DNA of 64,000 bases from Deltaproteobacteria bacterium (lineage in GTDB: Bacteria; Desulfobacterota; Anaeroferrophillalia; Anaeroferrophillales; Tharpellaceae), in the NCBI GenBank assembly GCA_016938065.1, contig JAFGVI010000063.1:2623-66622 (forward strand), in the 5' to 3' direction. The notes beneath the pieces are model-generated. The model ran no database searches. It was not told where the DNA came from and was given only the letters and a program-made list of their open reading frames with translations. The translations under genes were made by a program, and so were the position numbers. Each line of letters starts with the position of its first letter. The stretch's first letter is position 1. Below are positions 15,528 to 57,626 of this stretch, in pieces.

Positions 15528-15563
15528 AACGAACCCCGAACAAAACTGTCTGCGGACATTGAC

Positions 15564-15600
15564 AAAGCACTCGCATTTATTTGCGAGTGCTTTGTTATTT
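15564..15600 (+). terminator. Rho-independent terminator
   Basis: 12-bp stem aaagcactcgca / tgcgagtgcttt, loop tttatt, then gttattt. Confidence 0.75.
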
Positions 15601-15921: not shown

Positions 15922-17319
15922 ATGGCTGGATTACAATGGCGAAAGCTGAGGCTTGTGGCCGGGCTGATCTTGGGATGTTGTTTGCTGGCAACATCCGGAT
16001 TTGCCCTGGAATTGGGTGGGGCGGATCTGTCGATGAGAAGCTCCACTAAGTATCAAATGCAGTGGTCGGATAGTCCAGCAGACCGCATGAGCGTCGATGA
16101 CAGAAGGGATCAGGATATTTTCGAAACCCTGAGTATCGATGCCAACTGGCGTAACCTGGGTTTGACCTTCTCCTCCATGGCTACCTATGCCAAAGACCTG
16201 GACGGTACACCTCAGGGATCAATCTTTCAGGATTATACCGACAGCCGCGGATCGCATCGCCAGGATTTTGAGTGCTACTACGCTTACCTGGAAAAAACCG
16301 GGCTCTTTACCGAAGGCCTCAGCGTGCGGGTCGGACGCCAATATGCCTATGGCGCTGAGACCGTACAGTTTGATGGTCTCTGGACCCGCTATGAACAACC
16401 TCAATGGTTCGGTTTGGAGGTTGAAGCTTTTGGCGGTCTTGCAGTCCAGCACTACCATGATCTCGGCCCCGACGGAATCGGCGGCGCCAATCTGCGCGTC
16501 CGCCCTCTGCCGGGACTGGCCCTGGATTTGAATGCGCTGTTTTTCGAAGAAACCTCATGGGAAAGTTCTCTCTGCTGGCAGCCTTCAGAACTCTGGAAAT
16601 TCCGCAGTCGTCTTGCTTTTATCAACGACAATACCCGCTTTTTCGACAGCAGTCTGGAAACTACGATTGCGGCAACCGGGACTGTCCTGGACTTCTCATT
16701 CTATCGGCGCTATGCAATCGCAGCCAAAGCCGACTATCTTTTCGACTTCAGCTATAGCCTTGATGAAGCGTTAAGTTCGGAAATGAACCGCCTCTCTCTG
16801 ATGCAGGAACAGGGTTATCTCGAATTTGACATCCGCATCAATCAGCCCATTCCTCAGGTAAAAGGCCTCAGCCTTTTCGCGCGCTATACCAATCGCAGTC
16901 TCGCGCATGGCGAGGACGAGAATCTCTACAATACCGACTTTGAGAGGGTCACGGCCGGTTTTGACCTTGATCAGTGTTTCGGCTGGCAGGGCTTTCACTG
17001 CAGTGCCGGAGTCAGTCAATGGTGGGAGGATCGTGATAAATTCTACGAAGGGGAATCAACCTCATGGTTCGTCGATCTGGAACAGGAGATCTTCCATCGT
17101 CTCAAGCTTGAAGCCGGCTACTATCATAAAAGTGAAGACGTCAACAGTCTGATCGAAGATGAGGCTTCAACCAGCTACAGAGCGGCGGTAGCCTATCGCC
17201 TCTGCGACTATTCCAAAGTCGAAATTGCCTACGAATATGCTCAGGATGATTTCTATAAAGATGAACTGGGGGTTGACTATATTAATACTTTAACCATAAC
17301 GCTGGATCTCAACTTCTGA
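15922..17319 (+). CDS. Outer-membrane beta-barrel (porin-like) protein associated with multihaem cytochromes
   Basis: Signal peptide (...LILGCCLLATSGFA), alternating Tyr/Asp-rich strand-like segments, C-terminal ...TITLDLNF ending in Phe. First gene of the cytochrome cluster. Confidence 0.6.
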   Translation: MAGLQWRKLRLVAGLILGCCLLATSGFALELGGADLSMRSSTKYQMQWSDSPADRMSVDDRRDQDIFETLSIDANWRNLGLTFSSMATYAKDLDGTPQGSIFQDYTDSRGSHRQDFECYYAYLEKTGLFTEGLSVRVGRQYAYGAETVQFDGLWTRYEQPQWFGLEVEAFGGLAVQHYHDLGPDGIGGANLRVRPLPGLALDLNALFFEETSWESSLCWQPSELWKFRSRLAFINDNTRFFDSSLETTIAATGTVLDFSFYRRYAIAAKADYLFDFSYSLDEALSSEMNRLSLMQEQGYLEFDIRINQPIPQVKGLSLFARYTNRSLAHGEDENLYNTDFERVTAGFDLDQCFGWQGFHCSAGVSQWWEDRDKFYEGESTSWFVDLEQEIFHRLKLEAGYYHKSEDVNSLIEDEASTSYRAAVAYRLCDYSKVEIAYEYAQDDFYKDELGVDYINTLTITLDLNF

Positions 17320-17366: not shown

Positions 17367-18266
17367 ATGAGTAAGCAAAAGAGAAAATTATTCTGGTTCG
17401 GGCTTGCCGCGCTCGTCATCGGGGCTCTGGGTCTTGGAGCCTGCAAAACTTCAGTAGGCCTGAAATTCAGTCACCGCTTTCATATTGTCGAACAGGAAGC
17501 AAGCTGTGATCAGTGTCATAAAAAAGGCGACAACGGCAACTTTCTTGCCGCCACGATGGCTGACTGTCAGGAGTGTCACGAGTTTAATCCGGAGGAACCA
17601 TCTGAAGCATGTCTCCTCTGTCACACCCCGGAGAGTGCAACTAAGGATTACGCCATTGAAAAATCAGAAAAACCAGCCAAATACGCTGACCTGATTTTCA
17701 GTCATGAGCCGCACGCCGACTTCAACTGTGACAGCTGTCATAAATCTTCAAGCAAAGATTTCGACCTGAACAACAGCCCGCTGATGACAACATGTATCAG
17801 CTGTCACACAAAACAGGGTGCGCCGCAGGAGTGTGAAGCCTGCCACAAGGTCATCAGAGCTGAACAAGCGCCGGAAAGCCATGCGCAGGATTGGGAAAGT
17901 AGACACGGCTTCGCCAGCCGGCTCTCCAACAGTTGCGCGTATTGCCATCCGAACCGCCAGGCCTTCTGTGAAAAATGCCACCAGACTGAGAAACCCAAAG
18001 ACCACATCTTCAGCTGGAAGACCACAGGGCACGGAGTTGAGGCCAGCCATGACCGGCGGATCTGCGCCACCTGCCACACGGCAGGTTACTGTATCGATTG
18101 CCATAAGCATCAGAAGCCGGTTTCGCATTTTACCGGAGACTGGATGGCTTACCAGAGAGAAAACGGGCATGCTGAAGCGGCGCGCCGTAATTTCCGCAGC
18201 TGCAACGTCTGCCATGAAACCGGAGAATGCATGAAATGTCACAAAGGCATAATTTTAAGAAAGTAG
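17367..18266 (+). CDS. Dodecahaem c-type cytochrome lipoprotein (c7-like repeat units)
   Basis: 12 CXXCH motifs by my count: CDQCH, CQECH, CLLCH, CDSCH, CISCH, CEACH, CAYCH, CEKCH, CATCH, CIDCH, CNVCH, CMKCH. Lipobox LGLGAC. FSHRFH / FSHEPH segments resemble cytochrome c7. Confidence 0.9.
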   Translation: MSKQKRKLFWFGLAALVIGALGLGACKTSVGLKFSHRFHIVEQEASCDQCHKKGDNGNFLAATMADCQECHEFNPEEPSEACLLCHTPESATKDYAIEKSEKPAKYADLIFSHEPHADFNCDSCHKSSSKDFDLNNSPLMTTCISCHTKQGAPQECEACHKVIRAEQAPESHAQDWESRHGFASRLSNSCAYCHPNRQAFCEKCHQTEKPKDHIFSWKTTGHGVEASHDRRICATCHTAGYCIDCHKHQKPVSHFTGDWMAYQRENGHAEAARRNFRSCNVCHETGECMKCHKGIILRK

Positions 18267-18328
18267 TAAACCATAAAATCACTTATTTATTGAATGTTGC
18301 AAATATTTTAACCTTCGGAGGTAGCTCG

Positions 18329-21300
18329 ATGAAAAAACTTATCCCCATTATCCTGGGGGCCTTCCTCATGGCCCTCGCCCCGTTGCTGGCAAGTGCGGCA
18401 CATCCCCCGGTAGTGCTTTACGATACGCAGGGCAACCGCATTATCGACCAGTTGAACGATGCTGATACCACAACGGCAGTCAGTGGCGCAGTGTACAAAC
18501 AGGGCCCGGCATACAGCCCCAAACAGACCTGCGGCAAGTGCCATGACTACAACTCAATCACTAAAGCCTACCACTTCCGCGAAGGAACTACCCCCGGGGT
18601 TAACGGCGGTATAAGCGATACCTGGGTGAGCGAAAACAAAGATAACAATCTGCAGAAATATCTGACCCATGCCTACGGCCATCTGTTGAGTCCCGGCCAG
18701 TTTGGAGCGTGGTGACCCCCCTCCTACCGCCAGTTGGCGGCAAAAGGAGTTCGCGGCAGCAAGAATGCAACATTCACTTCGGAAGGAAAACCTTACTTTT
18801 TTGATATGGGCGCTGCTGACCATATGACCGTCTGTTATTCCTGTCATCCTGGCGGCGGCCCGGTTGAAGGTGTGGTCAACAGTGATAATACGGTAACCCA
18901 GTTTACCGACGAAAATCTCGCTCCGCTCCATACCTATGACCGTGATTTCTACGGCTACGATTCAAATGATCTGGTCAAAGCCCTCTATGGCGCCGACATG
19001 ACCTCAACCGCTTCCATAGCTGACACCATGTCTGACATCGGCGAGCCCCGCCCCCATGACTGGAGCAAATCCGGGGTTATGGAAGCCGATTGCCTGCTCT
19101 GCCATGTCGACCCTGAAAGCAGCTACGCCTATCAGGCGGCTGACGGTCTCAAGGTTCAGCCTTTTCGTCCGCGCTTGATGATTTTTGCCGATCGTGACCC
19201 CCAGACCCAGAAAGTCCAGGAGATTTCACTGGGCATGCCGACCAGAGTAGGGCTCGAAAACAGCACAGCCATGAACTATACCGACGGAGCTCAGCGAATG
19301 GGCCGCCCGACCCCGTTTATGGCGCTGGCGCATCTGCCCAAGGAGATCGTCGGCGAAATGATGCAGATGTGGGTTGATGGTCTACAGCAGATACAATCCA
19401 GCGGAGTACAGCTGCCGTACGCACTGTATGGCCAGAACGTCATGAAAATCTGGGATCCGGCCACCGGCATGCTCAAATCCGAATATTGCGCCAACCCCAA
19501 TGGGGTAGCCGATGAAATGGGTCGTCTGCAGAACGCTCAGGCCGCTCTCGGTCAGTTCTTCATGGGCTTTCTTCAGTATTTTAAGGATAAAGGTCTGATG
19601 CCGCCGAACGGCGACATGAATATGCTGATGGGCATGATGTTCAACGACTTTATTTATGCCTATCAGATCAAATTCAACATGCCCGGCAGCGATATGTTTC
19701 TACCGGTACCCTACGGGCTCAGGGCCTATGAACCGGGAAAATTCTACTCCAACTGGGACAGCTGCGACGCCTCAGTACGTGACTTCGTCCGGGCCGGTGT
19801 CATTGAAGGCGAAGGCATCCCCTACACCGGCAAAGTTGGTGAAGAGTACAGCGGCGCAATGTACGCCATGGGTCTGGTCATGCAGGGCAACTATCAGTAT
19901 GTTGACCAAGCGACCGGACAGATTGATCTTTCACTGGTCATCAAGGATATTCAGGAAGGCAACATTCCCAACGGCATGGTCAGCCCCACTTTACACGAAC
20001 TCCTGCCCAGTTTTTTTGACATGATGCCGACCGCAAACCTCATGGGCCTTGATTTCAACCACGATGGCTCCCCCACATCCTACGTCAAAATCAACCGTAA
20101 CGGGGATGAATGGCAGGCTAAAGCCTATTACAATACCGGCGACCTCGACAGCAACGGTGCCATCCCCATGGCCGAAATGTTTGGCGGCGAAGCAGACATC
20201 AACAGCTCTAAATGGGTTAAGGTCTGCGGGCAGTGCCATGTCATGACCAAAGATCACGGCAACAGCGAATGGACCCGGGGCCGTACCTATATGCTGGGCA
20301 TGCCGGCAGACTGGGTTAAAAACGGCAACTACGTTAACTTTACGGATGATCGCGACGCCATCGGCTACGACGTGCATATGTCGAGTCAAAAAATCGGCTG
20401 TGGTGCCTGCCATCTGCGTACAACCGGTAATAATGAGAATAAACACAACTTCCTCAAAGGGGTTGATACCGCCCATATGGTGCGTAACGACCTCGACGCC
20501 AATCCTCGGCCCAAAAGTTGCGAGGGTTGTCATCTGGCCGGTGAAGATAGCCATGCTCCAAGCCCCATCGCCAAACACGAAGAGGTCTTCGGCGAGAATA
20601 CTGGACGTCATCTGGCAGTGGTTTCCTGTCAGGCCTGTCATACCCCGTATCGCAAAACCTGGCGGTTCCGGACTTTCGATGATACCTTGGGCTACTATGC
20701 CAACTTTGACAACCTGATGGGTTACAATGTTCTGGCGGATCAGCAGGCCGGCATCATGGGCGATGGTAAAGGTATGGCTTTCCCCGGCCCCGCCTATGCC
20801 CTGCAACCGGTATACGGGACATCACCCGGTTACGGTATCCCCCATTTCAATATGGTCAGTCAGCAGATTTCTGCTGATGGAAAGGGCATCCAGTCGATGG
20901 ATTTCGTCTCCCAGATGGTCAACTATTTCAATATGGATGGTGAAGCCGATCCCGGACATCTGGTCAACGGTATGCCGACCAACTTTAAATTTGATTTCTG
21001 GAACTATTTCCTCCAGATCAGCTATGAAGGCTACAAACAGATGGGCGTACCGCTTGACTATAATCCGCAGCAGCCCAATCTGAGCTTTCCACCGCTTTAC
21101 TATGCTAATGGCATCAACGGTTATCCGCAGGTCGTTATCGGCAACCCGATTACTGTTATGACCTGGGTTGATGTTAATCCGCAGCCTGATGCCGAAATGT
21201 CCGATCTGCCTTATGGCGGAGCCAAGGTCCTTTATATCAAAGAGCTTAACGCCACCGTCCAGGCATACAAACGGCCTATTCAGCTGAATATGATTTCACC

Positions 21301-22372
21301 GATGGAAATGGCCATGATTCCGGCCAACGACCCGACCTATGCTGAAAATCCCTATGTCGGCAAAGTTATCCTCAAAGACAGCGGCTATGTCATTTATGAT
21401 CATACCGGCGACATGTTTCCCGATATCTGGTGGGATGAGGATGTAAAAGCCGTCCAGGCCGCCCTAACCACCGTACTTAAATCAGAAGGTGAGACTGATC
21501 CGCATCCGGTGCTGTTTATTGCAGCTCACTATTTTTCGGATACACACGGGGTTAAACCGGCGGATGTCGCCCTTGGCGCCAAATCCTGTAATGACTGTCA
21601 CGGCAGCTCAGCTACTTCTGCCGGGGCCCATCGGGTCACCGACCGGAACATCGTCTATATGCCGTGGTCACCGCCCTGGTTTACTGAAGCAAACCGCTTC
21701 ATGCGCTACAACCCGGAAAGCGGCAAGATGGATATGAAGAACCCCGATGGACTCTTTCTTGTTGATGGTGAGGTTGACTATATTCAACCCATGGTAGCCA
21801 ACGGCCTACATTTTCTCGGCGCCAAGGCCGAAGATGTGCTTAAGTTGAGCCAGCATCATGCTGAAGAACTATTCAAGATGATGGGCGAAGGTACAGTGAC
21901 GGGCAACCAGATAGCGGATATTGATCCGAGCCTGTTGACTGTGGCCGAACAGAGTGCCACATACGTTAAACAGGTTGTAAACGGCCCGTGGATGGATAAG
22001 ATGTACTTTTATGTTCCCGCTGAACTTAAAAACCACCTTGAAGCCTGCGGCTTTACGGTCGGCAGCGAAGAGAGCGTCTATCTTGAAGGTCGGGGCTTTG
22101 CCAGCGTCCATCCGCTGCAGTACGAGTATGCCGAATCAAGCGAGCTCGGCTCGATCCTGCGTCTCCCCTTTGCCGGGGCGGAACCTGAAATCTGGAGTCT
22201 GGGTGAGGACGACACCTTCTACAAGTTTGATCATGAAGCCGAAGTCGTCGGCTATCAGGGCGGATATGTACTGGTCAAGGTTTATGAACCCGGTGAATAT
22301 ATCGCCGTTGAACAGGGTGCCGGCAGCGGTAATGCACTGCTGTATGACCTCTGGGGAGCTTTCTTTAAATAG
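18329..22372 (+). CDS. Giant secreted octahaem c-type cytochrome, read through one in-frame TGA (18713-18715). Candidate selenoprotein of 1347 codons, or alternatively a disrupted gene.
   Basis: RBS ggaggt at 18317 and ATG at 18329. Signal peptide MKKLIPIILGAFLMALAPLLASA and CGKCH lie before the TGA. The same frame continues without a stop from 18716 to 22372 with CYSCH, CLLCH, CGQCH, CGACH, CEGCH, CQACH and CNDCH. The downstream part has no ATG start, RBS or signal peptide of its own. Confidence 0.6.
18721..18749 (+). promoter_or_regulatory. SECIS-like stem-loop downstream of the in-frame UGA
   Basis: The upper hairpin CCGCC-AGUU-GGCGG (18727-18740) starts exactly 11 nt after the UGA. The lower stem is CUCCU (18721-25) / AGGAG (18745-49). 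There is a G-U in the apical loop. Confidence 0.5.
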
Positions 22373-22402
22373 TTCCTGAGTTAATTTAATCGTTAACCTG
22401 AT

Positions 22403-22448
22403 AGAGGGGGCATTTTCTTAGATCCGAAAATGTCCCCTCTATTTTTTT
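22403..22448 (+). terminator. Rho-independent terminator of the cytochrome operon
   Basis: 15-bp stem agagggggcattttc / gaaaatgtcccctct (one G-U pair), 8-nt loop, followed by attttttt. Confidence 0.8.
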
Positions 22449-22605: not shown

Positions 22606-23484
22606 ATGGAGAACAAACAACTGCTGACCACCAAAGAGATTGCGATTTATCTCAAAATCAACGAAAAAAAGATCTATCAGTTAATCCAGGAAGGCTCCAT
22701 TCCCTGCACCAGAGTGGTCGGCAAATGGCTTTTCCCCATGGCTCAGATCAATCGCTGGCTTGAGGAAAACACTGAATCAAGCAAAAATATTCTTGTCGCC
22801 GGCAGTGATGACCCCCTTTTGATTAACCTGATCGAGGAATTTAACCGGACATATTTTCCCCAATACCTTGCTTTTCATGCTTCGGTCGGCAGCCAGAAAG
22901 GGCTGATCTCTCTGGCTGAGGGCAAAGCCCAGATTGCCGGTGTTCACCTGTTTCATCCCCCTACCGGAGAATATAATCTTCCCTATATAAAAAAACATCT
23001 GGCCGGCAAGAAATATACGGTCATTAATCTGGCCTATCGCCGCCAGGGCCTTCTGCTTTCTCCGGGCAACCCTCACAACATTAAGAAGATTACAGACCTG
23101 ACCCGAAAAGAGATCCGTTTTATCAATCGCAACCCCGGCTCCGGCACGCGCTATCTTTTCGATTTCATGCTGGAAAAGGACAAAATTACCGCGAGCCAGA
23201 TAAATGGTTACATGACTGAACGAATGACCCATCTGGAAACCGCCCTGGAGATTCTCAAAGGTACAGCTGATGTCGGTATGGGACTCGAATATTCGGCCCA
23301 TCTTCTGAAATTAGACTTTATTCCTCTGATCGAGGAGCGATTTGATCTGGTAACCTTGAAAGAAGGCTTTACCGCCCATCCTCTCAAGGATTTCTTTGCC
23401 TTTCTTGAACCGGAAAAACTCACTCTGAAAACTGCCGCCTTCAAAGGTTATGATTTTAGAAATTGCGGGAGCAGCCTGATTTAA
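22606..23484 (+). CDS. Transcriptional regulator: excisionase/MerR-type HTH (HTH_17-like) fused to a periplasmic-binding-protein-like ligand domain
   Basis: The N-terminus LLTTKEIAIYLKINEKKIYQLIQEGSIPCTRVVGKWLFPMAQINRWL is a typical HTH_17. The remaining ~230 aa resemble the PBP-like domain commonly fused to it. Confidence 0.65.
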   Translation: MENKQLLTTKEIAIYLKINEKKIYQLIQEGSIPCTRVVGKWLFPMAQINRWLEENTESSKNILVAGSDDPLLINLIEEFNRTYFPQYLAFHASVGSQKGLISLAEGKAQIAGVHLFHPPTGEYNLPYIKKHLAGKKYTVINLAYRRQGLLLSPGNPHNIKKITDLTRKEIRFINRNPGSGTRYLFDFMLEKDKITASQINGYMTERMTHLETALEILKGTADVGMGLEYSAHLLKLDFIPLIEERFDLVTLKEGFTAHPLKDFFAFLEPEKLTLKTAAFKGYDFRNCGSSLI

Positions 23485-23959: not shown

Positions 23960-25969
23960 ATGAAAAAGAGAAGATTTTCTTTTATTCTGGGGATTTTGGC
24001 TCTCTCTCTGCTCTTTGCAGCTCCTGCATTATCGGAAGATTCTTTCATGTTTAACCTGGACCTGATTTTTAATAAATGGATCAGCTCGGGACATGCCGAT
24101 GCCACATCGGAATCTTTCAACCACTGGAATGCTGAGGGCGAGGTTTCGACCAGCTGCGCCCGCTGTCACAGCAGTCCCGGCTACCTTGACTTTCTCGGGG
24201 CAGACGGCACTAAAGCCGGACAAGTCGATAAAGCCGCCCCCATAGGCACTGTTGTCGGCTGCCTCACCTGCCATAACGAAGAGGCCACCTGGCTTGATGA
24301 AGTGACTTTTCCTTCCGGAGCAACTATTCGCGGCCTGGGCTCTGAAGCCCGCTGTCTGGTCTGTCACCAGGGTCGGGAATCGGGCGCCAGCGTAGACGCA
24401 GCGATTACCGCGTCCGGCGTCGCCGATGACGACACCGTCAGCCGCTCTCTCGGTTTTATAAATATTCACTATTTTGCCGCCGCCGCAACCCAGTACGGAG
24501 CCCAGGCCCACAGCGGATACGAATATGCAGGCCAGAGTTACGACCTCAAATTTGATCATGTAGCCGGCTATGACACCTGCATCGGCTGTCACGATCAGCA
24601 TTCGCTCGAAGTCAGAATCAATGAAACTGTCCGCGGCAGTGAATGTAAAGACTGCCACGCCAAAGTTGCGACCTTTGCCGATCTGAAAAATATCCGCATG
24701 AACGGATCCATGGTCGATTATGACGGCGACGGCGACACCAGCGAAGGCATTGCCGGAGAGATCAGTACCTTGCAGGAAAAACTCTATACGACCGTTCAGG
24801 CTTATGCCTCCAACGTAATCGGCAGCCCGATTATCTACAACGGCCTGGCCTACCCTTACTGGTTTGTTGACGCAAACGGCAACGGCCTCGCTGATGCCGA
24901 TGAAACCAGCCGTTACGGTTCCTGGACGGCACGTCTGGTCAAAGCAACTTATAATTATCAGGCTTCCCTTAAAGATCCCGGAGCCTATGCTCACAACGCC
25001 AAATATGTCATTGAACTGCTTTACGATTCAATTGCCGACCTCAACAGTGCCCTGCCCGAAGCTGTAAAAATCGACATCAGTGCCCTGCACCGGGTTGACG
25101 GACCGCACTTTGACGGCTCCAAGGAGGCTTTCCGTCACTGGGACGCAGAGGGCGAAGTTTCGGCGAGCTGTTCAAAATGTCACGGCCGCTACGGGCTCGC
25201 AGAATTCCTCAACTACGGCAACGACCGTCCGACCGAACTTACGACTGACGGCATGGCCTGTATCAACTGTCACGGTCTTGACGCTGAAGGGCGCACCGCT
25301 TATACTGAAATCTGGGATACCGGCAAGGGCGTAGTTTTTCCTTCGGGCGCCGAAGTTTCTCTCGACAACAACAGTCAGCTCTGCATGAACTGTCATAGCG
25401 GTCGGGCTTTCGGCGGGACTGTCGTCGCAGCTAAATTCAGCAATATCCACTACTATCCTTCAGCGGCGGTTTTTTTCGGAGCCGATGTGCAAGGAGGCTA
25501 CGAATATGCCGGCAAGAGTTATGCGGGACAGAACCTCTACCCCAGCCACCCGGCCGACCTGAGCACCTGTACCGGCTGCCATATTCAGATGGACAACCGG
25601 ATCAAACATCAGTTCAAACCTTCACTTGATCTTTGTAACTGGTGCCATACCGGCGATTCATTTGAAGAACTGAGCGGCCGACCTAAAACTTATCACACTA
25701 GCCTGGCTAACCTGGCAGATCAACTTTACACTCAGATTCAAAGCTACGCTGCAGCTCACGGAATGACGGCAACACATCTGGAAAGCTATCCCTACTGGTC
25801 AGGCACCAACACTTGGGATATTAATGTCGCTGCCGCTGCCTATAACTATCAACTTTATCTTAAAGAACCAGCCGCTTACATGCATAACGGAGCCTATGTC
25901 GGTCAGTTACTCTACGATGCCATCGAAAATCTCGGCGGCACTCCGGCAGAAAACCGTCCCGCTAATTAA
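23960..25969 (+). CDS. Secreted decahaem c-type cytochrome built from two pentahaem halves (occupies the MtrC position)
   Basis: RBS aggagg. Signal peptide MKKRRFSFILGILALSLLFAAPALS with no lipobox Cys. 10 CXXCH motifs: CARCH, CLTCH, CLVCH, CIGCH, CKDCH, CSKCH, CINCH, CMNCH, CTGCH, CNWCH. Confidence 0.9.
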   Translation: MKKRRFSFILGILALSLLFAAPALSEDSFMFNLDLIFNKWISSGHADATSESFNHWNAEGEVSTSCARCHSSPGYLDFLGADGTKAGQVDKAAPIGTVVGCLTCHNEEATWLDEVTFPSGATIRGLGSEARCLVCHQGRESGASVDAAITASGVADDDTVSRSLGFINIHYFAAAATQYGAQAHSGYEYAGQSYDLKFDHVAGYDTCIGCHDQHSLEVRINETVRGSECKDCHAKVATFADLKNIRMNGSMVDYDGDGDTSEGIAGEISTLQEKLYTTVQAYASNVIGSPIIYNGLAYPYWFVDANGNGLADADETSRYGSWTARLVKATYNYQASLKDPGAYAHNAKYVIELLYDSIADLNSALPEAVKIDISALHRVDGPHFDGSKEAFRHWDAEGEVSASCSKCHGRYGLAEFLNYGNDRPTELTTDGMACINCHGLDAEGRTAYTEIWDTGKGVVFPSGAEVSLDNNSQLCMNCHSGRAFGGTVVAAKFSNIHYYPSAAVFFGADVQGGYEYAGKSYAGQNLYPSHPADLSTCTGCHIQMDNRIKHQFKPSLDLCNWCHTGDSFEELSGRPKTYHTSLANLADQLYTQIQSYAAAHGMTATHLESYPYWSGTNTWDINVAAAAYNYQLYLKEPAAYMHNGAYVGQLLYDAIENLGGTPAENRPAN

Positions 25970-26054
25970 AGGCTATTGATGGGCAGCCAGGGCCATCCCC
26001 ATTCCGGGATGGCCCTGTTTAACACAGGCCCGCAACCACAGAGGAGGAGAAGGG

Positions 26055-26945
26055 ATGCCCTTAAAAGAAAAAAACTGGCTCTGGCCATTACGACTAGGTC
26101 TTTTACTGGTGCTTTTTGGAGGCATCCTCCAAGCTTTGCCCGCCCAGGCCGCAGCCATCAGCTGTGGCGAATGTCACGATCAGATTACCACGGATTACGG
26201 CCACACTTATCATGGCCGAGCCGGACTCGCCCAGGGTTTCGACTGTCTCGCCTGTCACGGTCCGGACGAGCGCCATCTCAACGATCCCTCCCGGGAAAAT
26301 ATTGTCTCCTACGGCAAAAATTCAATTCAGACCATTACCGAGCAGAATCAGCTCTGCCTTGAGTGCCACAAGAGTACACCTGAGGTCTCTTTATGGGAGA
26401 TGAGTCGTCACTGCCACAATGACGTCGCCTGCGTCAACTGCCACAAGATCCACAGCCGCAACTCCAAGGTTAATGAACCCGCCGTCTGCTATACCTGCCA
26501 CCGCGACCTGCGCCTGGCTTTCAACAAGATCTCGCATCATCCTATTGTCGAAGGCAAAATCAAATGCAGTGACTGCCATAACAGCCATGGCACTTTAACC
26601 CCCAAAATGTTGACGGATGATGACTTAAACCAGCTCTGCTACCGCTGCCATGCCGAAAAACGCGGACCTTTTGCCTGGGAGCACCCACCGGTTTCTGAAA
26701 ACTGTGCTATCTGCCACGATCCGCACGGCAGCCGCCATGAAAAATTACTAAAAGATAAAGTCGCCAACCTCTGCCAGGACTGCCACAATGCCGATCTCCA
26801 TTCAAGCCGGGCCTACGATGCCGGATCCGGCTTCGCCAAGGCCAAACGGGCCGGCAGCATTGGTTTCGCCGGGCGCTCCTGTTTGAACTGCCACGGCAAT
26901 ATTCACGGCAGCACCCACTTTGAAAAACGCGCTTTTACGCGATAA
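26055..26945 (+). CDS. Periplasmic decahaem cytochrome, MtrA/DmsE family
   Basis: 296 aa with a signal peptide and 10 CXXCH motifs: CGECH, CLACH, CLECH, CVNCH, CYTCH, CSDCH, CYRCH, CAICH, CQDCH, CLNCH. Size and haem density are typical of MtrA/DmsE, and it immediately precedes a large barrel gene. Confidence 0.85.
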   Translation: MPLKEKNWLWPLRLGLLLVLFGGILQALPAQAAAISCGECHDQITTDYGHTYHGRAGLAQGFDCLACHGPDERHLNDPSRENIVSYGKNSIQTITEQNQLCLECHKSTPEVSLWEMSRHCHNDVACVNCHKIHSRNSKVNEPAVCYTCHRDLRLAFNKISHHPIVEGKIKCSDCHNSHGTLTPKMLTDDDLNQLCYRCHAEKRGPFAWEHPPVSENCAICHDPHGSRHEKLLKDKVANLCQDCHNADLHSSRAYDAGSGFAKAKRAGSIGFAGRSCLNCHGNIHGSTHFEKRAFTR

Positions 26946-26958
26946 AAGGGAGGCAGAG

Positions 26959-28971
26959 ATGAAAAAAGCAGTTTATGTTCTGATCATTGCGGTGGTTTTT
27001 GCCTCAATGACATTTGCCGCGGAAAACCCGAAGGTCGACGTATCCGGCTCAATCACAGCCGGTTACCGCCTGACGGACGACCGCTCAAACAACAAGGCCC
27101 GTTTTCTCGAATACCGGGATCTTGATGACAATCCCTTCGGCGCTTTTGCCTTATCCCTGCAGCGGGGAACCTATTATTTGACTTTAGAGGGGTGCAATAT
27201 TGGCCAGGATGACCAGTCCTACCGGATCAAAGGCACCGATTACCGCAACTTCTCCGGCGCTTTTTTCTACGATGAAACACCGCACAATCTCAGCTTCGAT
27301 GCCCGGGCGCCCTACAGCGGTATCGGCAGTCCCGATCTACAACTTACCCCGACCCTGACAAAGATGACGACTTTTGACTACAGCGTCGAGCGCAAGGAGT
27401 TCGGAGGCGAGATAACGCTTACCTTGAACACCCCTTTTTATCTGAGTATGGAGCTTCAACGCCGGGAACAAAACGGTTTAAAACCTCTGGGCAGCGGCGA
27501 CTACTGGTCAAACCTTGAACTGCCGGAACCCGTTGATTACACTACCAATGATCTTAATTTAACGGGCGGCTATCGCGGCAAAACCATCCAGGCTGCAATC
27601 AGGGGTTACTGGAGCAGATTTGACAACGCCGACAATTCAATGTCCCGGCCGTACACTGACGATACAATAACCCTGCCGCCGGATAACGACTACGGTAAGG
27701 TAGCAGCTGAACTAAGCTGGCGTGACCTGCCTCTAAATTCTCTGCTGGCGCTGCGCCTCAGCTACGATCGGACCGAGAGCGACATCTCCCTCTCCGACCT
27801 TGGCCTCAAACAAAGCAGCGATCTTTACCGAACCACCTTCAGCGGCGATAGAACCTGCACTCGGGCAAACATCGCCCTCTCCTCCCGCCCCGGCCCCCGG
27901 CTGGATACGAGAATCTACTATTCCTATCTGGATCAGAACAATGACTCAAGCTCGATCTCCGCAATGCAGGATACTCAGATTTTTGCCTACAACAGAAACA
28001 TTGCCGGCATCGACATCGATTACGCAATTGCCCGCCATACCAGCCTGGGTACGGGTTATGAATTTGAAAATATCGAGCGCCACAACCGTCTTGACGGAGA
28101 GAGCACCACGGACCACAGCCTTTACTTTGAGGTCAAAAACAGCAGCCTCGACTTCCTCAGTACCAGAATCCGTTATAAAAGACTGGAACGTGACGCGCAG
28201 TTCAAAAACCACAACCAGGGTGTGAACCCGTTTACCGACGGCGATGAGTGGATTAAACGCTATCTGCGCCGCTATGATGTCACAGACAAGAGCATGGATG
28301 AGATTAAACTGGTTCTGGAACTCTATCCGCTGCCGCAACTGGATTTCGGGGTTGAGTACAGCTACCAGATGAATGATTATGACAAAACCGACCTCGGTTT
28401 GACCGAAGATAAGCACCACGCCGTCTATACCGATTTTATCTGGCGGGCGAGCAACCGCATCTCCCTCAGCGGTTTTGCCGGTTACGAAAAAACCGAGGCC
28501 GACAGCCGGCACCGGCAGTTTGCCGCCGGCGAATCAGCTGACATTAATGACCTGAGCGACGGAGCCTTCAACTGGCAGAAGAATCGGGATGATGACTTCT
28601 GGAGCTGCGGAGTAGCGTTAGACTGTCCCGATATCATCAAAAAACTGAGTCTGCACTGCGCCTGGCAATACCAGGATTCTAATGGCAAAGTCAGCTTCAG
28701 CTCGGCCGAAAACCAGCTGGCCGACATTAATCAGTCCGACGATTACGACCTGCAGAAACTTGAGATCAAGCTTGCCTATGTCGTGCAGGCCCATACTACG
28801 GTGACCATTGGTTACCTATACGAAAAATATGATGCCGACGATCTGCAATTCGCCGATTATACAGCCTTCACCCCTACCGGCACAATACCCGGGAGCTACC
28901 TGACCGGGGCCTATTACGACCAGGACTACAAGGCAAATGTCGGCTATCTCATGCTCTCTTATAATTTTTGA
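26959..28971 (+). CDS. MtrB/PioB-family decahaem-associated outer-membrane barrel
   Basis: ATG at 26959 after gggagg. Signal peptide MKKAVYVLIIAVVFASMTFA. ~670 aa, Tyr/Asp-rich strand pattern, C-terminus ...YLMLSYNF. Gene order is cytochrome-cytochrome-barrel. Confidence 0.75.
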   Translation: MKKAVYVLIIAVVFASMTFAAENPKVDVSGSITAGYRLTDDRSNNKARFLEYRDLDDNPFGAFALSLQRGTYYLTLEGCNIGQDDQSYRIKGTDYRNFSGAFFYDETPHNLSFDARAPYSGIGSPDLQLTPTLTKMTTFDYSVERKEFGGEITLTLNTPFYLSMELQRREQNGLKPLGSGDYWSNLELPEPVDYTTNDLNLTGGYRGKTIQAAIRGYWSRFDNADNSMSRPYTDDTITLPPDNDYGKVAAELSWRDLPLNSLLALRLSYDRTESDISLSDLGLKQSSDLYRTTFSGDRTCTRANIALSSRPGPRLDTRIYYSYLDQNNDSSSISAMQDTQIFAYNRNIAGIDIDYAIARHTSLGTGYEFENIERHNRLDGESTTDHSLYFEVKNSSLDFLSTRIRYKRLERDAQFKNHNQGVNPFTDGDEWIKRYLRRYDVTDKSMDEIKLVLELYPLPQLDFGVEYSYQMNDYDKTDLGLTEDKHHAVYTDFIWRASNRISLSGFAGYEKTEADSRHRQFAAGESADINDLSDGAFNWQKNRDDDFWSCGVALDCPDIIKKLSLHCAWQYQDSNGKVSFSSAENQLADINQSDDYDLQKLEIKLAYVVQAHTTVTIGYLYEKYDADDLQFADYTAFTPTGTIPGSYLTGAYYDQDYKANVGYLMLSYNF

Positions 28972-29198: not shown

Positions 29199-30245
29199 TT
29201 AATATTCTCGGATCAGGTTGTAGAGGGTATCGCGCTGCATGGCGTTGAATCCCGCTTCATTAATCGTATCGACAAGTTCTTGAAGAGAGATCGCAAAATG
29301 AACCCCGGCGGCGGCGACAACGTTTTCTTCAATCATGGTCGAGCCGAAATCGTTGGCCCCGAAGTAGAGGGCCACCTGCGCCATTTTCGTCCCCTGGGTA
29401 ACCCAGGAGGCCTGAAGGTTGTCGATATTGTCGAGAACTAAACGGGAGAGAGCGAGAACCCTGAGATAATCAATGCCGGTGGCGGGCAACGCCACTTCTT
29501 CGGCAAGGGCTGTGTTGGTCGGCTGAAAGCTCCAGGGAATAAAGGCAGTAAAGCCGCCGCTGCGATCCTGAACCTCACGCACTCGGAAAAGATGGTCAAT
29601 GAGCTCTTCCGGGGTCTCGATGGAACCGAACATCATCGTCGCCGTACTTCTTAAGCCCAAAGCATGGGCCGTCTCCATAACTTCGAGCCAGCGCTGCCAG
29701 CCGATCTTATTGGGACTGATCAGGGTGCGCACGCGATCGTCGAGGATTTCGGCCCCGCCCCCGGGAATCGAGCCCAATCCGGCCGCTTTCAGCTGAAGCA
29801 GGGTCTCTTTAAGACCGAGTTTCGATAACACCGCAATATGGAAGATCTCGGGCGGTGAGAAGCCATGAATATGGATGGCCGGGAAATCCTTTTTGATGGT
29901 CTTTAGCAGCCCCAGATAGTAATCAATCTTCAAGTCGGGATGAAGACCCCCCTGAAGCAGAATCTGGGTGCCGCCGAGCTCAATGGTTTCGGCAATTTTA
30001 TGCCGCAATAGAGCTTCATCGATAACAAAGGCATCGGCATCTTCAGGCCGGCGATAATAGGCGCAGAAACGACACTGGCACTGACAGATATTGGTATAGT
30101 TGATATTGCGGTCGATAGCAAAGGTAACCTTTTTCTGCGGATGCCGGCGCAGGCGGGCGGCATGAGCGCGCGCGCCCAGTTCTAAAAGATCACAATGTTT
30201 AAAAAGATCGAGAGCCTGCTGCCGGTCCAGTCTCACATCATTCAT
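29199..30245 (-). CDS. mqnC: Radical SAM menaquinone (futalosine pathway) enzyme, probably cyclic dehypoxanthinyl futalosine synthase
   Basis: Start taken at MNDVRLDRQQ... (ATG at 30245, 8-nt overlap with the upstream gene). Motifs VTFAIDRNINYTNICQCQCRFCAYYRRP and ILLQGGLHP. The MqnC vs MqnE assignment is from remembered family patterns. Confidence 0.6.
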   Translation of the reverse strand: MNDVRLDRQQALDLFKHCDLLELGARAHAARLRRHPQKKVTFAIDRNINYTNICQCQCRFCAYYRRPEDADAFVIDEALLRHKIAETIELGGTQILLQGGLHPDLKIDYYLGLLKTIKKDFPAIHIHGFSPPEIFHIAVLSKLGLKETLLQLKAAGLGSIPGGGAEILDDRVRTLISPNKIGWQRWLEVMETAHALGLRSTATMMFGSIETPEELIDHLFRVREVQDRSGGFTAFIPWSFQPTNTALAEEVALPATGIDYLRVLALSRLVLDNIDNLQASWVTQGTKMAQVALYFGANDFGSTMIEENVVAAAGVHFAISLQELVDTINEAGFNAMQRDTLYNLIREY

Positions 30246-31320
30246 CACGACCTCCCACCGGCTGATAAAAAGTATCCCGTTCCTGCGGCTGACGTCCCGC
30301 CCGGATGATTGAATTCCTGATATAGGCCTCACTCAAGCCCACCGCACTCCGGGCCCCGGCGGCATGGGTAATCCTTTCTTTGACCACCGTGCCGTCAAGA
30401 TCATTTACCCCGAAAAGCAGGGCAAGCTGGGCGATTTTTTCGCCGAGCATAACCCAGTAGGCCTTGATATGTTGAAAATTATCCAGATAGAGGCGGGCGA
30501 TAGCCAGGGTTTTCAGATCATCAATGGCGCTGGTTTCACCTTTTTTGCGAATATCGGTGTTGGTCGCATGAAAGGCCAGAGGAATAAACACCTGAAAACC
30601 GCCGGTCTGATCCTGCAGGGCGCGCAGTTTCTCCATATGGTCGACGCGATCGGCAAAACTTTCAATGTGACCGTAAAGCATGGTGGCATTGGTCGGAATC
30701 GCCGCCCGATGCGCCAGCGCCATAATCTCAAGCCAGCGGGCACCGCTGATCTTTTCCGGACAGATCAGCTCCCTGACGGCGGGCGCAAAAATCTCGGCAC
30801 CCCCACCGGGCATGGCCTGCAGACCGGCATCCTGTAACTGTTTAAGAACCGTCGGAATATCAAGCCCGCTGATTTTGGCAAAATAGTCGATTTCAACTGC
30901 GGTAAAGGCCTTAATGACGATAGCCGGATGTTCGCGTTTAAGAGCGCGCAACAACTCCAGATAGTGAGCAAAAGGCCAGTCGGGGTGCAGTCCGCCGACA
31001 ATATGAAACTCCCGGATTCCCAGGGTTTCCGCCTCTTTTACCTGTTCCAGAATATCATCAATACACTCTTCGTAAGCCCCCTCTTCGCCTTTGAGTTTGC
31101 TGTAGGCGCAGAAACGGCACTGATTGACACAGATATTGGTCGGATTAATATGCCGGTTTATATTGTAGTAAACCACGTCGCCATTAATCTTCTGATTGAT
31201 CTCGGCCGCGAGTTTGCCGAGAGCAAAAAAATCACCCGCTTCGTAGAGAAACAGCGCATCGCTGGACGACAGGCGCTCTCCGGCGCGCCGTTTGGCGGCA
31301 ATTTCATCGAATTTTTTCAA
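30238..31320 (-). CDS. mqnE: Radical SAM menaquinone (futalosine pathway) enzyme, probably aminofutalosine synthase
   Basis: 360 aa. Motifs NINRHINPTNICVNQCRFCAY and HIVGGLHPDWPFAHY. Paralogous to the adjacent gene. Confidence 0.6.
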   Translation of the reverse strand: MKKFDEIAAKRRAGERLSSSDALFLYEAGDFFALGKLAAEINQKINGDVVYYNINRHINPTNICVNQCRFCAYSKLKGEEGAYEECIDDILEQVKEAETLGIREFHIVGGLHPDWPFAHYLELLRALKREHPAIVIKAFTAVEIDYFAKISGLDIPTVLKQLQDAGLQAMPGGGAEIFAPAVRELICPEKISGARWLEIMALAHRAAIPTNATMLYGHIESFADRVDHMEKLRALQDQTGGFQVFIPLAFHATNTDIRKKGETSAIDDLKTLAIARLYLDNFQHIKAYWVMLGEKIAQLALLFGVNDLDGTVVKERITHAAGARSAVGLSEAYIRNSIIRAGRQPQERDTFYQPVGGRDE

Positions 31321-55207: not shown

Positions 55208-57592
55208 ATGAAAAAAAAATTTTGGCTATTTTTCATCCCAGCCTTGTTGCTGGCCGGTCATTTCACCGGTAATCCCGCGGCAGCGCGCATGAACATTGGT
55301 GGAGCCCGGCAGATAAGCAACGCAATCCACCAGAATGCCCGCCAAAGTCTGCGCCCCCACTTAAATATCAACTCGTCATACGCAGTTCCGGTTATGGGTG
55401 TTAAAGTAAGTCCCGATGGACACACTATGGCCATGCTTGGCAGCGATAATCGAGTTCATCTCTGGAATCTGCAGACCGGTCAGAAATTCTACAGTTTCCA
55501 CGCCGCCGCCGAGGTTGCGAATATGAGTTTTCCGGCCCACGAACAGAGGATTTTGATTACTGATGTAAAAGGCGCTATCAACAGCATCAATTTTAATGGC
55601 GAAAGCGCTAAACCTAAACAAAAGACAGAAATGTACAAATCCTCCAAAATTCTGGCTTTTCATCCGGATGGCAAAATTCTGGCCTGCGCCGGTTCCGACC
55701 AAAATATCGAACTGTGGCAAATCAGTCACACGGGTGAGTTAGCAAAAATAAAAACCTTGCCCAACCCAAAAAATATTTCCCGCTTAGCTTTCAGCGGTGA
55801 CGGTTCCAAACTTTTGAGCGCCGATAACTCAGGTCGGCTGCTCTACTGGAACTGGCAAAAAGAAAAAATTGACCTTAGTGAAAAAATAAATTCACCTATA
55901 ACCGCCATAGCGACCATGCCCGCAGAGAGCATCATGGCCATCGCCAGTGAAAATGGCCAGCTTTACCTGTTAGGACTCTCACAAAATAACCCAATTGCAA
56001 AATTACCCAAGGTTGCAGCTCTGCAAAAAAATTGCCTGACCGGTTTAACTTTCGTCTCTTCCGGTTCACCGTATCTCATCGGCTGCAGCCGAAACGGCAA
56101 TCTCTACAAATGGGAGGTGCCCTCCGGCAATTTACTTTTGAGCTGCGAGTTGAATGAAAATGTAAAATTGAATGGGGTTGCGAGCATCCCAGGGCTGGAG
56201 TACTTCTTTAGTGCCGGCGAGGGTCGCTTTTTGAGGCTCTGCTCGCTTGCCAGTGGCAAGGAGGTCGCAAAACTCGTTGTCCTGAATGAGGGATGGGGCG
56301 CCGTTTCGGCGAACGGCTGCTTTGATGGAACCCTCAAAAACGCTGCCGAGGACCATTTGCAGGCTTTGAACTGGACTTGTAATAATCAGGAGCTTGCCCT
56401 CGACGGTTTTCTGGCAAGTTATTACCGCCCCGCCCTCCTGGGCCGCCTGCTGACCGGAATAACGCCCGAACCCCAAACCGGCGCCCCGGACATCGAAAAC
56501 ATAGCATCCGTGGAAGAATTTCCCATGCCGCCCACTATACAGATCATTAAACCAGCGAAGGAAATTGAAACCTCTGAACAGATGATTGAAATCACTCTCA
56601 AAGCCGCAGATCAGGGCAGCGGCATCCACGATATTCGCCTCTACCATAATGGTAACATTGTTGATGATCAGAAAAGCACTCAGACAACCGGTGAAAAAAA
56701 CGGCGAAGTCAGAAAAACCTATAAGCTATCCCTGCTCGCAGGTGCCAACCAGATCAAAGCTGTTGCGCTAAATGATGCTCTGGTCGAAAGTACACCTGAC
56801 GAAATTTTAGTTACGACAACCTGGAGCGGACCTAAACCCAGACTGCATATTGTGACCGTCGGGATCAGCAAATACGACAATCACCGACTTGATCTCAACT
56901 TCTCGCGTCAAGACGCTGAAAAAATCGGCCAGGCCTTACTGGCGGAAAAAAGCTCCGCCTACAGCGAAATCATTCTTCACCATCTCTATGATGATGAAGC
57001 CAGCCGAACTGCAATCAACAAAAAGCTCGAAGAACTGATAAATTTGCCCCCCCAGGATACGGTTGTGATCTACATGGCCGGCCATGGAGAAACCCTGGAT
57101 GATGAATGGTTTTTTATCCCGCACGAACTGCGCCATCCGGAAAATAAAACAAGCCTTAAAGAAAATGCAATTTCATCCTCACTTCTGGAATTATCTATCG
57201 CTCAGATCGGAGCTCGACGCATTTTTTTAATTCTCGATGCCTGTAAATCGGGCGCCCTGGTCAACGCATTTGCCAACTTTGACAACTACCGCCCGATGGC
57301 CTTACTCTCACGCTTAACCGGCATTCATGTTATCTCCGCCACAACCCGCGACCAATACGCCGGAGAATTCGGCCGCCTGGGCCATGGCTTATTTACCTAC
57401 TCCCTGCTCGAAGGTTTACAGAATAGGGCTGACAACAACCCGAAGGACGGTAACATCTCAGTCTCAGAAATTATGAGTTACGTCGAGACCCAAATGCCGA
57501 TACTGATCGAACGTCACGCCCTGCCAGTGCAGAATCCGCTGATTAATTCACATGGAGAAGATTTTCCTATTGCTGCCAACATCAGAATGTAA
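55208..57592 (+). CDS. Exported WD40-repeat / Ig-like / caspase-fold (peptidase C14) protein
   Basis: Signal peptide MKKKFWLFFIPALLLAGHFTGNPAAA. WD40-type repeats (e.g. LGSDNRVHLWNLQTGQ). Caspase dyad contexts VIYMAGHGE and LILDACKSG. Confidence 0.85.
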   Translation: MKKKFWLFFIPALLLAGHFTGNPAAARMNIGGARQISNAIHQNARQSLRPHLNINSSYAVPVMGVKVSPDGHTMAMLGSDNRVHLWNLQTGQKFYSFHAAAEVANMSFPAHEQRILITDVKGAINSINFNGESAKPKQKTEMYKSSKILAFHPDGKILACAGSDQNIELWQISHTGELAKIKTLPNPKNISRLAFSGDGSKLLSADNSGRLLYWNWQKEKIDLSEKINSPITAIATMPAESIMAIASENGQLYLLGLSQNNPIAKLPKVAALQKNCLTGLTFVSSGSPYLIGCSRNGNLYKWEVPSGNLLLSCELNENVKLNGVASIPGLEYFFSAGEGRFLRLCSLASGKEVAKLVVLNEGWGAVSANGCFDGTLKNAAEDHLQALNWTCNNQELALDGFLASYYRPALLGRLLTGITPEPQTGAPDIENIASVEEFPMPPTIQIIKPAKEIETSEQMIEITLKAADQGSGIHDIRLYHNGNIVDDQKSTQTTGEKNGEVRKTYKLSLLAGANQIKAVALNDALVESTPDEILVTTTWSGPKPRLHIVTVGISKYDNHRLDLNFSRQDAEKIGQALLAEKSSAYSEIILHHLYDDEASRTAINKKLEELINLPPQDTVVIYMAGHGETLDDEWFFIPHELRHPENKTSLKENAISSSLLELSIAQIGARRIFLILDACKSGALVNAFANFDNYRPMALLSRLTGIHVISATTRDQYAGEFGRLGHGLFTYSLLEGLQNRADNNPKDGNISVSEIMSYVETQMPILIERHALPVQNPLINSHGEDFPIAANIRM

Positions 57593-57626
57593 AGCTTTAT
57601 ATGTACATATAATCAGCGAGGGAAGA

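Follow-up and report, generated by a model that had tools for sequence, protein, structure and literature searches.

The 64,000-nucleotide stretch analyzed here (hereafter the window; contig JAFGVI010000063.1 of the Deltaproteobacteria bacterium assembly GCA_016938065.1) carries on its forward strand, between positions 18329 and 22372, two open reading frames (ORFs) separated by an in-frame UGA codon. The first encodes a signal peptide and one haem-binding motif and the second a large segment with seven more, and immediately beyond the UGA lies a hairpin resembling a bacterial selenocysteine insertion sequence (SECIS; bSECIS for the bacterial type). The present study considers whether the two frames are a single gene for a secreted multihaem cytochrome in which the UGA specifies selenocysteine (Sec). 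The features at the locus are listed below, where MFE denotes the minimum free energy fold.

18317-18321, forward strand: Shine-Dalgarno sequence GGAGG, 7 nt ahead of the ATG at 18329
18329..22372, stop included, forward strand: proposed complete Sec gene for a 1347-residue octahaem c-type cytochrome with Sec at codon 129 (from the sequence and a 58-locus comparison)
18329..18397, forward strand: signal peptide MKKLIPIILGAFLMALAPLLASA of the Sec export pathway (in all 35 aligned N-terminal fragments)
18530-18544, forward strand: haem-1 motif CGKCH, residues 68-72 (C68, C71 and H72 invariant)
18713-18715, forward strand: in-frame UGA, proposed Sec codon 129 (TGA in 56 of 58 loci, a Cys codon in 2)
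18721..18749, forward strand: SECIS-like element, made up of a lower helix CUCCU/AGGAG (18721-25 / 18745-49) and an upper stem-loop (present in the MFE fold)
18727-18740, forward strand: putative SECIS core, a 5-bp stem CCGCC/GGCGG with loop AGUU (from codon conservation, kept pairs and bSECIS criteria)

The coordinates given in the initial annotation for the ATG, the TGA, the shared frame and the hairpin were all reproduced on the window sequence. The frame opened by ATG 18329 is free of stops from the TGA at 18713-18715 to the terminal stop at 22370-22372, and the fused product has 1347 residues, with the UGA as codon 129 in the context ...SPGQFGAW-U-PPSYRQLAAK. Seven CXXCH motifs lie downstream of the UGA, at fused residues 169, 255, 633, 691, 731, 767 and 1087. 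The sole start open to the downstream ORF is the TTG at 18734, which would give a product beginning LAAKGVRGS... without a purine-rich ribosome-binding site (RBS) or export signal; the earlier observation that this ORF has neither an RBS nor a signal peptide was borne out, and in none of the 58 loci compared does the downstream part have a signal peptide of its own. All eight haem sites depend for export on the signal peptide MKKLIPIILGAFLMALAPLLASA, no other being present.

A database search with the fused protein returned 84 strong homologs with 38-85% identity, nearly all of them 1170-1236 amino acids (aa) long, covering about 88-90% of the query and having LAAK or MAAK as their first residues just past the position of the UGA, a TTG directly after that position having been taken as the start codon. 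The N-terminal 128-aa segment matched 109 proteins, all of them stand-alone and 123-145 aa in length, which are called "hypothetical protein" where the source names them. All 35 of the 35 N-terminal fragments that were aligned contain the signal peptide and haem 1 and have ...GQxGAW as their last residues. Every database record examined splits the gene, into a "hypothetical protein" of about 130 aa and a protein of about 1200 aa. The site is crossed as sense in two long homologs, P0083 with Cys (FGSW-C-PVSFRQLAAK) and P0067 with Leu, and a distant relative, P0273, reads W-C-S at the aligned position.

At the nucleotide level, 65 loci from species-representative genomes were retrieved, 58 of which span the UGA site. 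In each of these 58, exactly one codon separates the N-terminal segment from the large ORF and the frame is preserved, so that, in line with the initial annotation, the homologs are not two independent genes. The joining codon reads TGA 56 times; L057 has TGT in its place and L058 has TGC. The TGA is thus not private to this strain, and the exceptions encode Cys, the classic Sec/Cys pairing; with P0083 (W-C-P), these two loci supply the single-ORF homologs with Cys at the UGA site that the initial annotation had suggested looking for. Both flanks of the UGA are conserved (E 1e-22 to 1e-74), with amino acid identities of 42-96%. Among the 57 distinct TGA sequences compared, the UGA is always followed by C (UGA-C), and codons +1 to +3 encode Pro-Pro-Ser in 100% of cases, each residue being written with four synonymous codons. 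Because the amino acids are fixed while the synonymous codons vary, and this ahead of any restart codon, these three codons are translated, with selection acting on the protein. The annotated gene pair is very probably a single gene encoding a 1347-residue secreted eight-haem cytochrome.

The gene was seen in 56 or more species-level genomes, which come from hydrothermal, cave and sediment environments, with Desulfobulbia, Dissulfuribacterales and Thermodesulfatator-like metagenome-assembled genomes (MAGs) from vents and sulfidic caves among the hosts. Homologous contigs were also found in bins labelled Thermoplasmata, Methylomirabilis or Desulfurococcales (L008, L049 and L064); these labels probably reflect binning errors and not archaeal carriers, because the contigs have 57-84% identity to bacterial genes. 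One MAG, JALWJV01, contains three giant-cytochrome paralogs (L046, L057 and L066/L067) with Sec (TGA), Cys (TGT) and Leu (CTG), respectively, at one site, and its Leu paralog has an extra N-terminal multihaem extension of about 550 aa and a decayed hairpin.

Constraint of another kind is seen at codons +4 to +8, where synonymous entropy across the 57 TGA sequences is about 0 bits, compared with 1-2 bits in the flanking codons. Tyr TAC is used in 57 of 57, followed by Arg CGC in 53 and CGT in 4, Gln CAG in 57 of 57, Leu TTG in 45 of 45 and Ala GCG in 57 of 57; the remaining 12 sequences carry Val GTG at the Leu position. These five codons coincide exactly with the stem-loop, which is placed 11 nt (to the stem) and 16 nt (to the loop) from the UGA, and the core stem and lower helix are both in the MFE fold of 18700-18770. 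By RNAalifold all 5 pairs of the core stem are kept in 55 of 55 sequences, the sole change being a C-to-U that gives G.U. For an extended 11-bp helix that bulges a single C, 90.7% of cells are paired, as opposed to 28-59% for slid controls, and one pair in the lower helix alternates between C.G and U.A in 9 sequences. Folding of the TGA loci is better than that of 300 synonymous recodings made for the peptide of each gene (mean z -2.7), and in 21 of the 57 none of the 300 was as good. The Cys loci gave z of +0.7 and +0.8; their RQLAA is spelled AGG CAG CTT GCT GCA, and no hairpin remains. The Leu paralog (CTG) has GCA in place of the otherwise invariant GCG, breaking one stem pair. These patterns show selection at the RNA level on the stem-loop in TGA genes, and its loss along with Sec.

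The published bSECIS model (PMC13188914) specifies a loop of 3-9 nt, an upper stem of 4-16 bp, a G within the first two loop positions, a UGA-to-loop distance of 16-37 nt and an MFE of -7.5 kcal/mol or lower. The element here has loop AGUU or AGGU, a 5-bp stem, a distance of 16 nt and an MFE of -9.3 kcal/mol for the consensus and -16.2 kcal/mol for the window, so that the hairpin reported 11 nt after the UGA is confirmed and agrees with the model. Like the Escherichia coli fdhF type, it is inside the coding region directly 3' of the UGA, with a GC-rich 5-bp upper stem, a 4-nt loop with G at position 2 and then U or G, and an MFE under -7.5 kcal/mol (PMC13188914). It differs in having the shortest spacing that the model allows and a lower helix whose register varies among species, and binding by SelB is predicted. 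On this comparative evidence the gene shows the features by which selenoproteins are predicted computationally under standard criteria, that is, a conserved UGA, Cys homologs, RNA-level constraint and a fit to the bSECIS model, and UGA 18713-18715 is in all likelihood recoded to selenocysteine. A ribosome would reach the UGA in the UGA-C context, where termination is weak and the release factor disfavoured. If bacterial Sec insertion as it is known elsewhere also operates in this organism, SelB and Sec-tRNA(Sec) would bind the stem-loop CCGCC-AGUU-GGCGG 11 nt downstream and insert Sec-129. Translation would then run on through seven more haem sites, and the single N-terminal signal peptide would export the whole chain for haem attachment.

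Several results weigh against recoding. In the window itself the hairpin is no more stable than chance, z being -0.25 relative to dinucleotide shuffles and about -1 relative to synonymous recodings, of which 54 in 300 fold as well. The initial annotation had suggested folding of 18700-18770 as a check on the hairpin; the hairpin does appear in the MFE fold but is not energetically above chance, and the support comes from comparison across genomes, where conservation of the TGA and of the stem-loop codons far exceeds chance. There are no compensatory double changes in the core stem among the 55 sequences, and covariation is limited to one lower-helix pair; core-stem covariation is absent because the stem never varies. 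Nucleotide conservation could partly reflect protein constraint on YRQLA, but this is countered by the Cys homologs, which keep RQLAA with different codons. No Rfam family matched in a gathering scan of the whole window or a permissive scan of 18600-18850, although this says little because no bacterial SECIS model matched. As for the decoding machinery, ARAGORN detected no tRNA-Sec in the window and 53 loci, and neither the 64-kb window, where 30 ORFs were annotated with NCBIfam, nor some 1 Mb of flanks of the retrieved loci yielded selA, selB, selC or selD. On the other side, the genetic code is not reassigned, because TGA ends other window genes normally, being the ordinary stop in 10 of 39 long open frames.

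If the UGA were instead a true stop, the locus would produce a 128-aa monohaem protein and a separate heptahaem protein of about 1212 aa starting from TTG 18734. This would agree with the gene callers, which split the gene in every public record examined, with the presence of TTG or GTG 7 codons past the UGA, and with the lack of sel genes in the window. That TTG or GTG, however, sits in the hairpin loop without an RBS; exactly one codon separates the two in-frame parts at every one of the 58 loci; from the UGA to the TTG, selection acts on the encoded amino acids while synonymous sites change freely; and the Cys-type homologs are single ORFs. Further, a separate downstream product would have no signal peptide, and therefore its 7 CXXCH sites could not mature. 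We regard termination at this codon as highly improbable. Another explanation is read-through of the UGA independent of selenium, by near-cognate Trp, Cys or Arg insertion or by a suppressor tRNA, with the hairpin only boosting leaky termination. In its favor, no stop context in model bacteria leaks more than UGA-C, and no sel machinery was found in the window or retrieved flanks. Against this, the sense codons at the site in close homologs are only Cys, the hallmark of Sec sites, bar one Leu paralog, and the hairpin fits the geometry of a SelB-type bSECIS, with G at loop position 2 and 16-nt spacing. A low-level leak would also be an inefficient way to make a 150-kDa protein, yet TGA is kept in 56 of 58 lineages. 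Moreover, relatives in the same phylum make a Sec-containing multihaem enzyme, MccSep, its Sec type being reported in Desulfurivibrio, Thermosulfurimonas and other members (PMC13510729). Selenium-free read-through is thus very unlikely. Finally, a sense codon such as TGT or TGG could have mutated to TGA in a pseudogene or been miscalled in sequencing or assembly, since TGT, TGC and TGG are each one base change from TGA; but 56 genomes assembled independently, with 57 distinct flanking sequences, share this TGA, and the two halves remain conserved at the identities given above, so this explanation has practically no probability and is considered refuted. Selenocysteine insertion is the reading we retain. 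Of the refuting conditions named in the initial annotation, all that were checked turned out in its favor, and the secreted octahaem 1347-residue Sec protein first proposed for this locus is strongly supported by the conserved TGA, the one-codon junction, the rare Cys homologs and the constrained hairpin.

The Sec cytochrome shows only generic multihaem signatures in Pfam, namely MtrC/MtrF domain II/IV and cytochrome c7. NCBIfam release 20, which includes models for ExtKL (NF040886), GSU2204 (NF041027) and the octahaem tetrathionate reductase family (TIGR04315), gave no match to NF040886 at E <= 1 and none to NF041027, a barrel of MtrB/PioB type with CXXCH. The only match among these haem-selenoprotein models was to TIGR04315, local and over haems 5-7, with E 1e-4 and 21.5 bits against a cut-off of 375. 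Membership in that family was rejected, given this score, a match confined to a generic haem-packing stretch, and a protein three times longer. The direct hidden Markov model comparisons therefore place the family outside the MccSep, GSU2204 and octahaem tetrathionate reductase families.

Within the family the PGxxGxW-[U/C] site is invariant. More distant N-terminal fragments (among P0260, P0263, P0330 and P0359) also end right after the conserved Trp, as in ...SPGQFGSW, ...SAGMYGKW and ...SPGHSGAW, and one distant relative, P0273, reads W-C-SP. This suggests, at the level of sequence, that PGxxGxW-[U/C] may be a feature of a wider superfamily with further unannotated Sec genes. Many single-haem proteins of about 100 aa also match the stretch TCGxCHDYxxITxAYHF. 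In several family members, P0072 (the same as L046), P0079, P0083 and P0084, the C terminus carries a long extension in which Lcl_C (PF07603) domains are combined with Cys-rich CGxCDxDxxNDC repeats, features typical of surface or extracellular proteins; the Lcl_C domains occur in some Sec-type and some Cys-type homologs.

Terminator-like hairpins enclose a unit of three genes, with the Sec gene in last place. The other features of the unit are as follows.

15560..15597, forward strand: terminator-like hairpin with a 16-bp stem and T-run, likely the end of the preceding transcription unit
15922..17319, forward strand: 465-aa outer-membrane beta-barrel partner (signal peptide, about 22 strands, C-terminal ...LDLNF)
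17367..18266, forward strand: 299-aa lipoprotein multihaem cytochrome with an LGAC lipobox and 12 CXXCH motifs (from the sequence)
22400..22443, forward strand: strong intrinsic-terminator-like hairpin with an 18-bp stem and TTTTT, the end of the operon

The 465-aa barrel belongs to no Pfam or NCBIfam family and has no sequence match to MtrB/PioB. Its AlphaFold2 (AF2) model has a predicted local distance difference test score (pLDDT) of 81 and 22 beta-strands, and Foldseek matched it to outer-membrane barrels with probability 1.00 and E about 1e-10. The barrel gene accompanies the Sec gene in 41 loci, and the gene for the 12-haem cytochrome does so in 43, with order and orientation kept, so that in about three quarters of loci the Sec gene is in an operon with both. 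A second, separate conduit-type cluster lies downstream at 23960-28971; it encodes two cytochromes, one a multihaem protein of 669 aa and the other a decahaem protein of DmsE/GSU2203-like type (26055-26945), along with an MtrB/PioB barrel. It was considered as part of the Sec system and rejected, not being conserved beside the Sec gene elsewhere. The MtrB-like barrel of this cluster (26960-28971) matches NF041027 partially, with 84.8 bits against a cut-off of 350, and was likewise rejected as a selenoprotein of GSU2204 type, having its own RBS, an ATG at 26960, a signal peptide and no upstream in-frame part.

The layout of the Sec operon, with a barrel, a 12-haem lipoprotein and a large secreted cytochrome, is that of a porin-cytochrome electron conduit. 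It resembles Shewanella MtrCAB and Geobacter OmaB-OmbB-OmcB and ExtHIJKL in combining a barrel, a haem-dense cytochrome of periplasmic type and a large secreted cytochrome. It differs in its barrel, whose sequence matches neither MtrB/PioB nor any Pfam or NCBIfam family, and in its large cytochrome, which is haem-poor, has Sec, and contains large non-haem domains of no known fold. The Sec cytochrome may be the catalytic end of the conduit and not a wire because it has few haems for its length (8 in 1347 residues), PGxxGxW-[U/C] is invariant and surface-type domains are found in some homologs. We put the chance that it is an enzyme at the catalytic terminus of the conduit at about even.

Some observations do not favor such a function. 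About a quarter of loci, including that of isolate B35 (L034), have neither the barrel nor the 12-haem partner, a sequence search of the PDB gave only noise-level c7 matches, and no resemblance to a characterised enzyme was detected. The AF2 model of residues 130-1328 has a pLDDT of 78.9 and a predicted template modelling score of 0.79, but it is unreliable for about 50 residues after the Sec. Foldseek found no match for this model in the PDB (best E 0.17), which is weak negative evidence because multi-domain haem-free models are hard targets. Lastly, no invariant non-motif Cys that could act as a partner was found among the homologs, and the initial annotation rightly observed that W-U-P does not conform to a redox motif of CxxU type. 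The residue may have a new role, as was suggested there.

Multihaem cytochromes containing Sec are already known as a kind from MccSep, described in 2026 (PMC13510729). MccSep/ExtKL (GSU2937-2936) of Geobacter sulfurreducens is a pentahaem selenocysteine polysulfide reductase in which Sec lies beside a His/Cys haem; it is essential for sulfur respiration, and before 2026 no Sec-dependent multihaem enzyme had been characterised (PMC13510729). The two systems are alike in several ways. Both are secreted multihaem c-type cytochromes with an in-frame UGA and a SECIS-like hairpin, annotated as two ORFs; both have Sec-type members and Cys-type relatives; and both occur in Desulfobacterota/Thermodesulfobacteriota from sulfur-rich habitats. 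The Geobacter gene, too, is clustered with an outer-membrane porin, ExtI, and other cytochromes. There is, however, no sequence relationship (no match to NF040886 at E <= 1 and no PDB sequence match), and here there are 8 haems in 1347 residues compared with 5 haems in the MccSep subunit of about 50 kDa. The Sec of the present family lies between haems 1 and 2 (residue 129, W-U-P), whereas that of MccSep is past all haems in a C-terminal Ig-like domain (D-G-U-P, U325), and a counterpart of the haem-ligating C239 of MccSep was not found among the invariant residues. The octahaem tetrathionate reductase family TIGR04315 also has Sec members annotated in GenBank (PMC13188914). The Sec cytochrome is similar to it in its eight CXXCH motifs and a weak local match over haems 5-7, but is three times longer and far under the family cut-off. 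The present family is set apart by its size, by the position and context of its Sec, by having no partner Cys and by its operon. We found no description of it in the literature, and it is absent among the haem-related entries found by keyword in the table of a 2026 review.

If the Sec cytochrome is an enzyme, Sec-129 would sit beside or on a haem, as a nucleophile or ligand for a redox reaction. It is possible, though doubtful, that the substrate is of chalcogen type, such as polysulfide, S0 or related S/Se species; this guess is made by analogy with MccSep and because the hosts are sulfur-cycling Thermodesulfobacteriota from vents and sulfidic caves. Put together, we tentatively suggest a cell-surface selenoenzyme heading the conduit, in which Sec-129, in an invariant PGxxGxW-U-PP loop with no partner Cys, ligates a c-type haem or acts beside it and with which the hosts reduce or oxidise extracellular sulfur (or Se, As or metal). 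Were this so, a natural selenolate-haem would be possible where Sec-129 ligates haem, insoluble or extracellular sulfur (or Se/As/metal) species would be handled outside the cell by sulfur-cycling Thermodesulfobacteriota, and the family would represent a second, independently evolved union of selenium with multihaem proteins after MccSep.

Reading the UGA as Sec would have consequences for annotation as well. It would restore a 150-kDa secreted octahaem protein that is now labelled "hypothetical" and "cytochrome c3 family", and would add a selenoprotein family missing from the NCBIfam selenoprotein models tested, with a W-U-P context lacking a CxxU-type partner. It would be a second Sec-multihaem protein, unrelated to MccSep and tied to an outer-membrane barrel and a 12-haem cytochrome, and a concrete candidate for extracellular sulfur or mineral handling that is genetically testable in cultured carriers.

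Other genes in the window deserve brief mention. Directly downstream of the Sec gene, at 22606-23484, is a regulator-like gene with HTH_17 and PBP_like (molybdate/tungstate-type) domains, which is not conserved at other loci. At 55208-60068 are two adjacent proteins of 794 and 838 aa, each with an EACC1-associated caspase-type domain, the second having in addition a weak match to a BamB-like beta-propeller. On the reverse strand at 29199-31320, MqnC and MqnE are encoded side by side, and the organism therefore makes menaquinone by the futalosine pathway.

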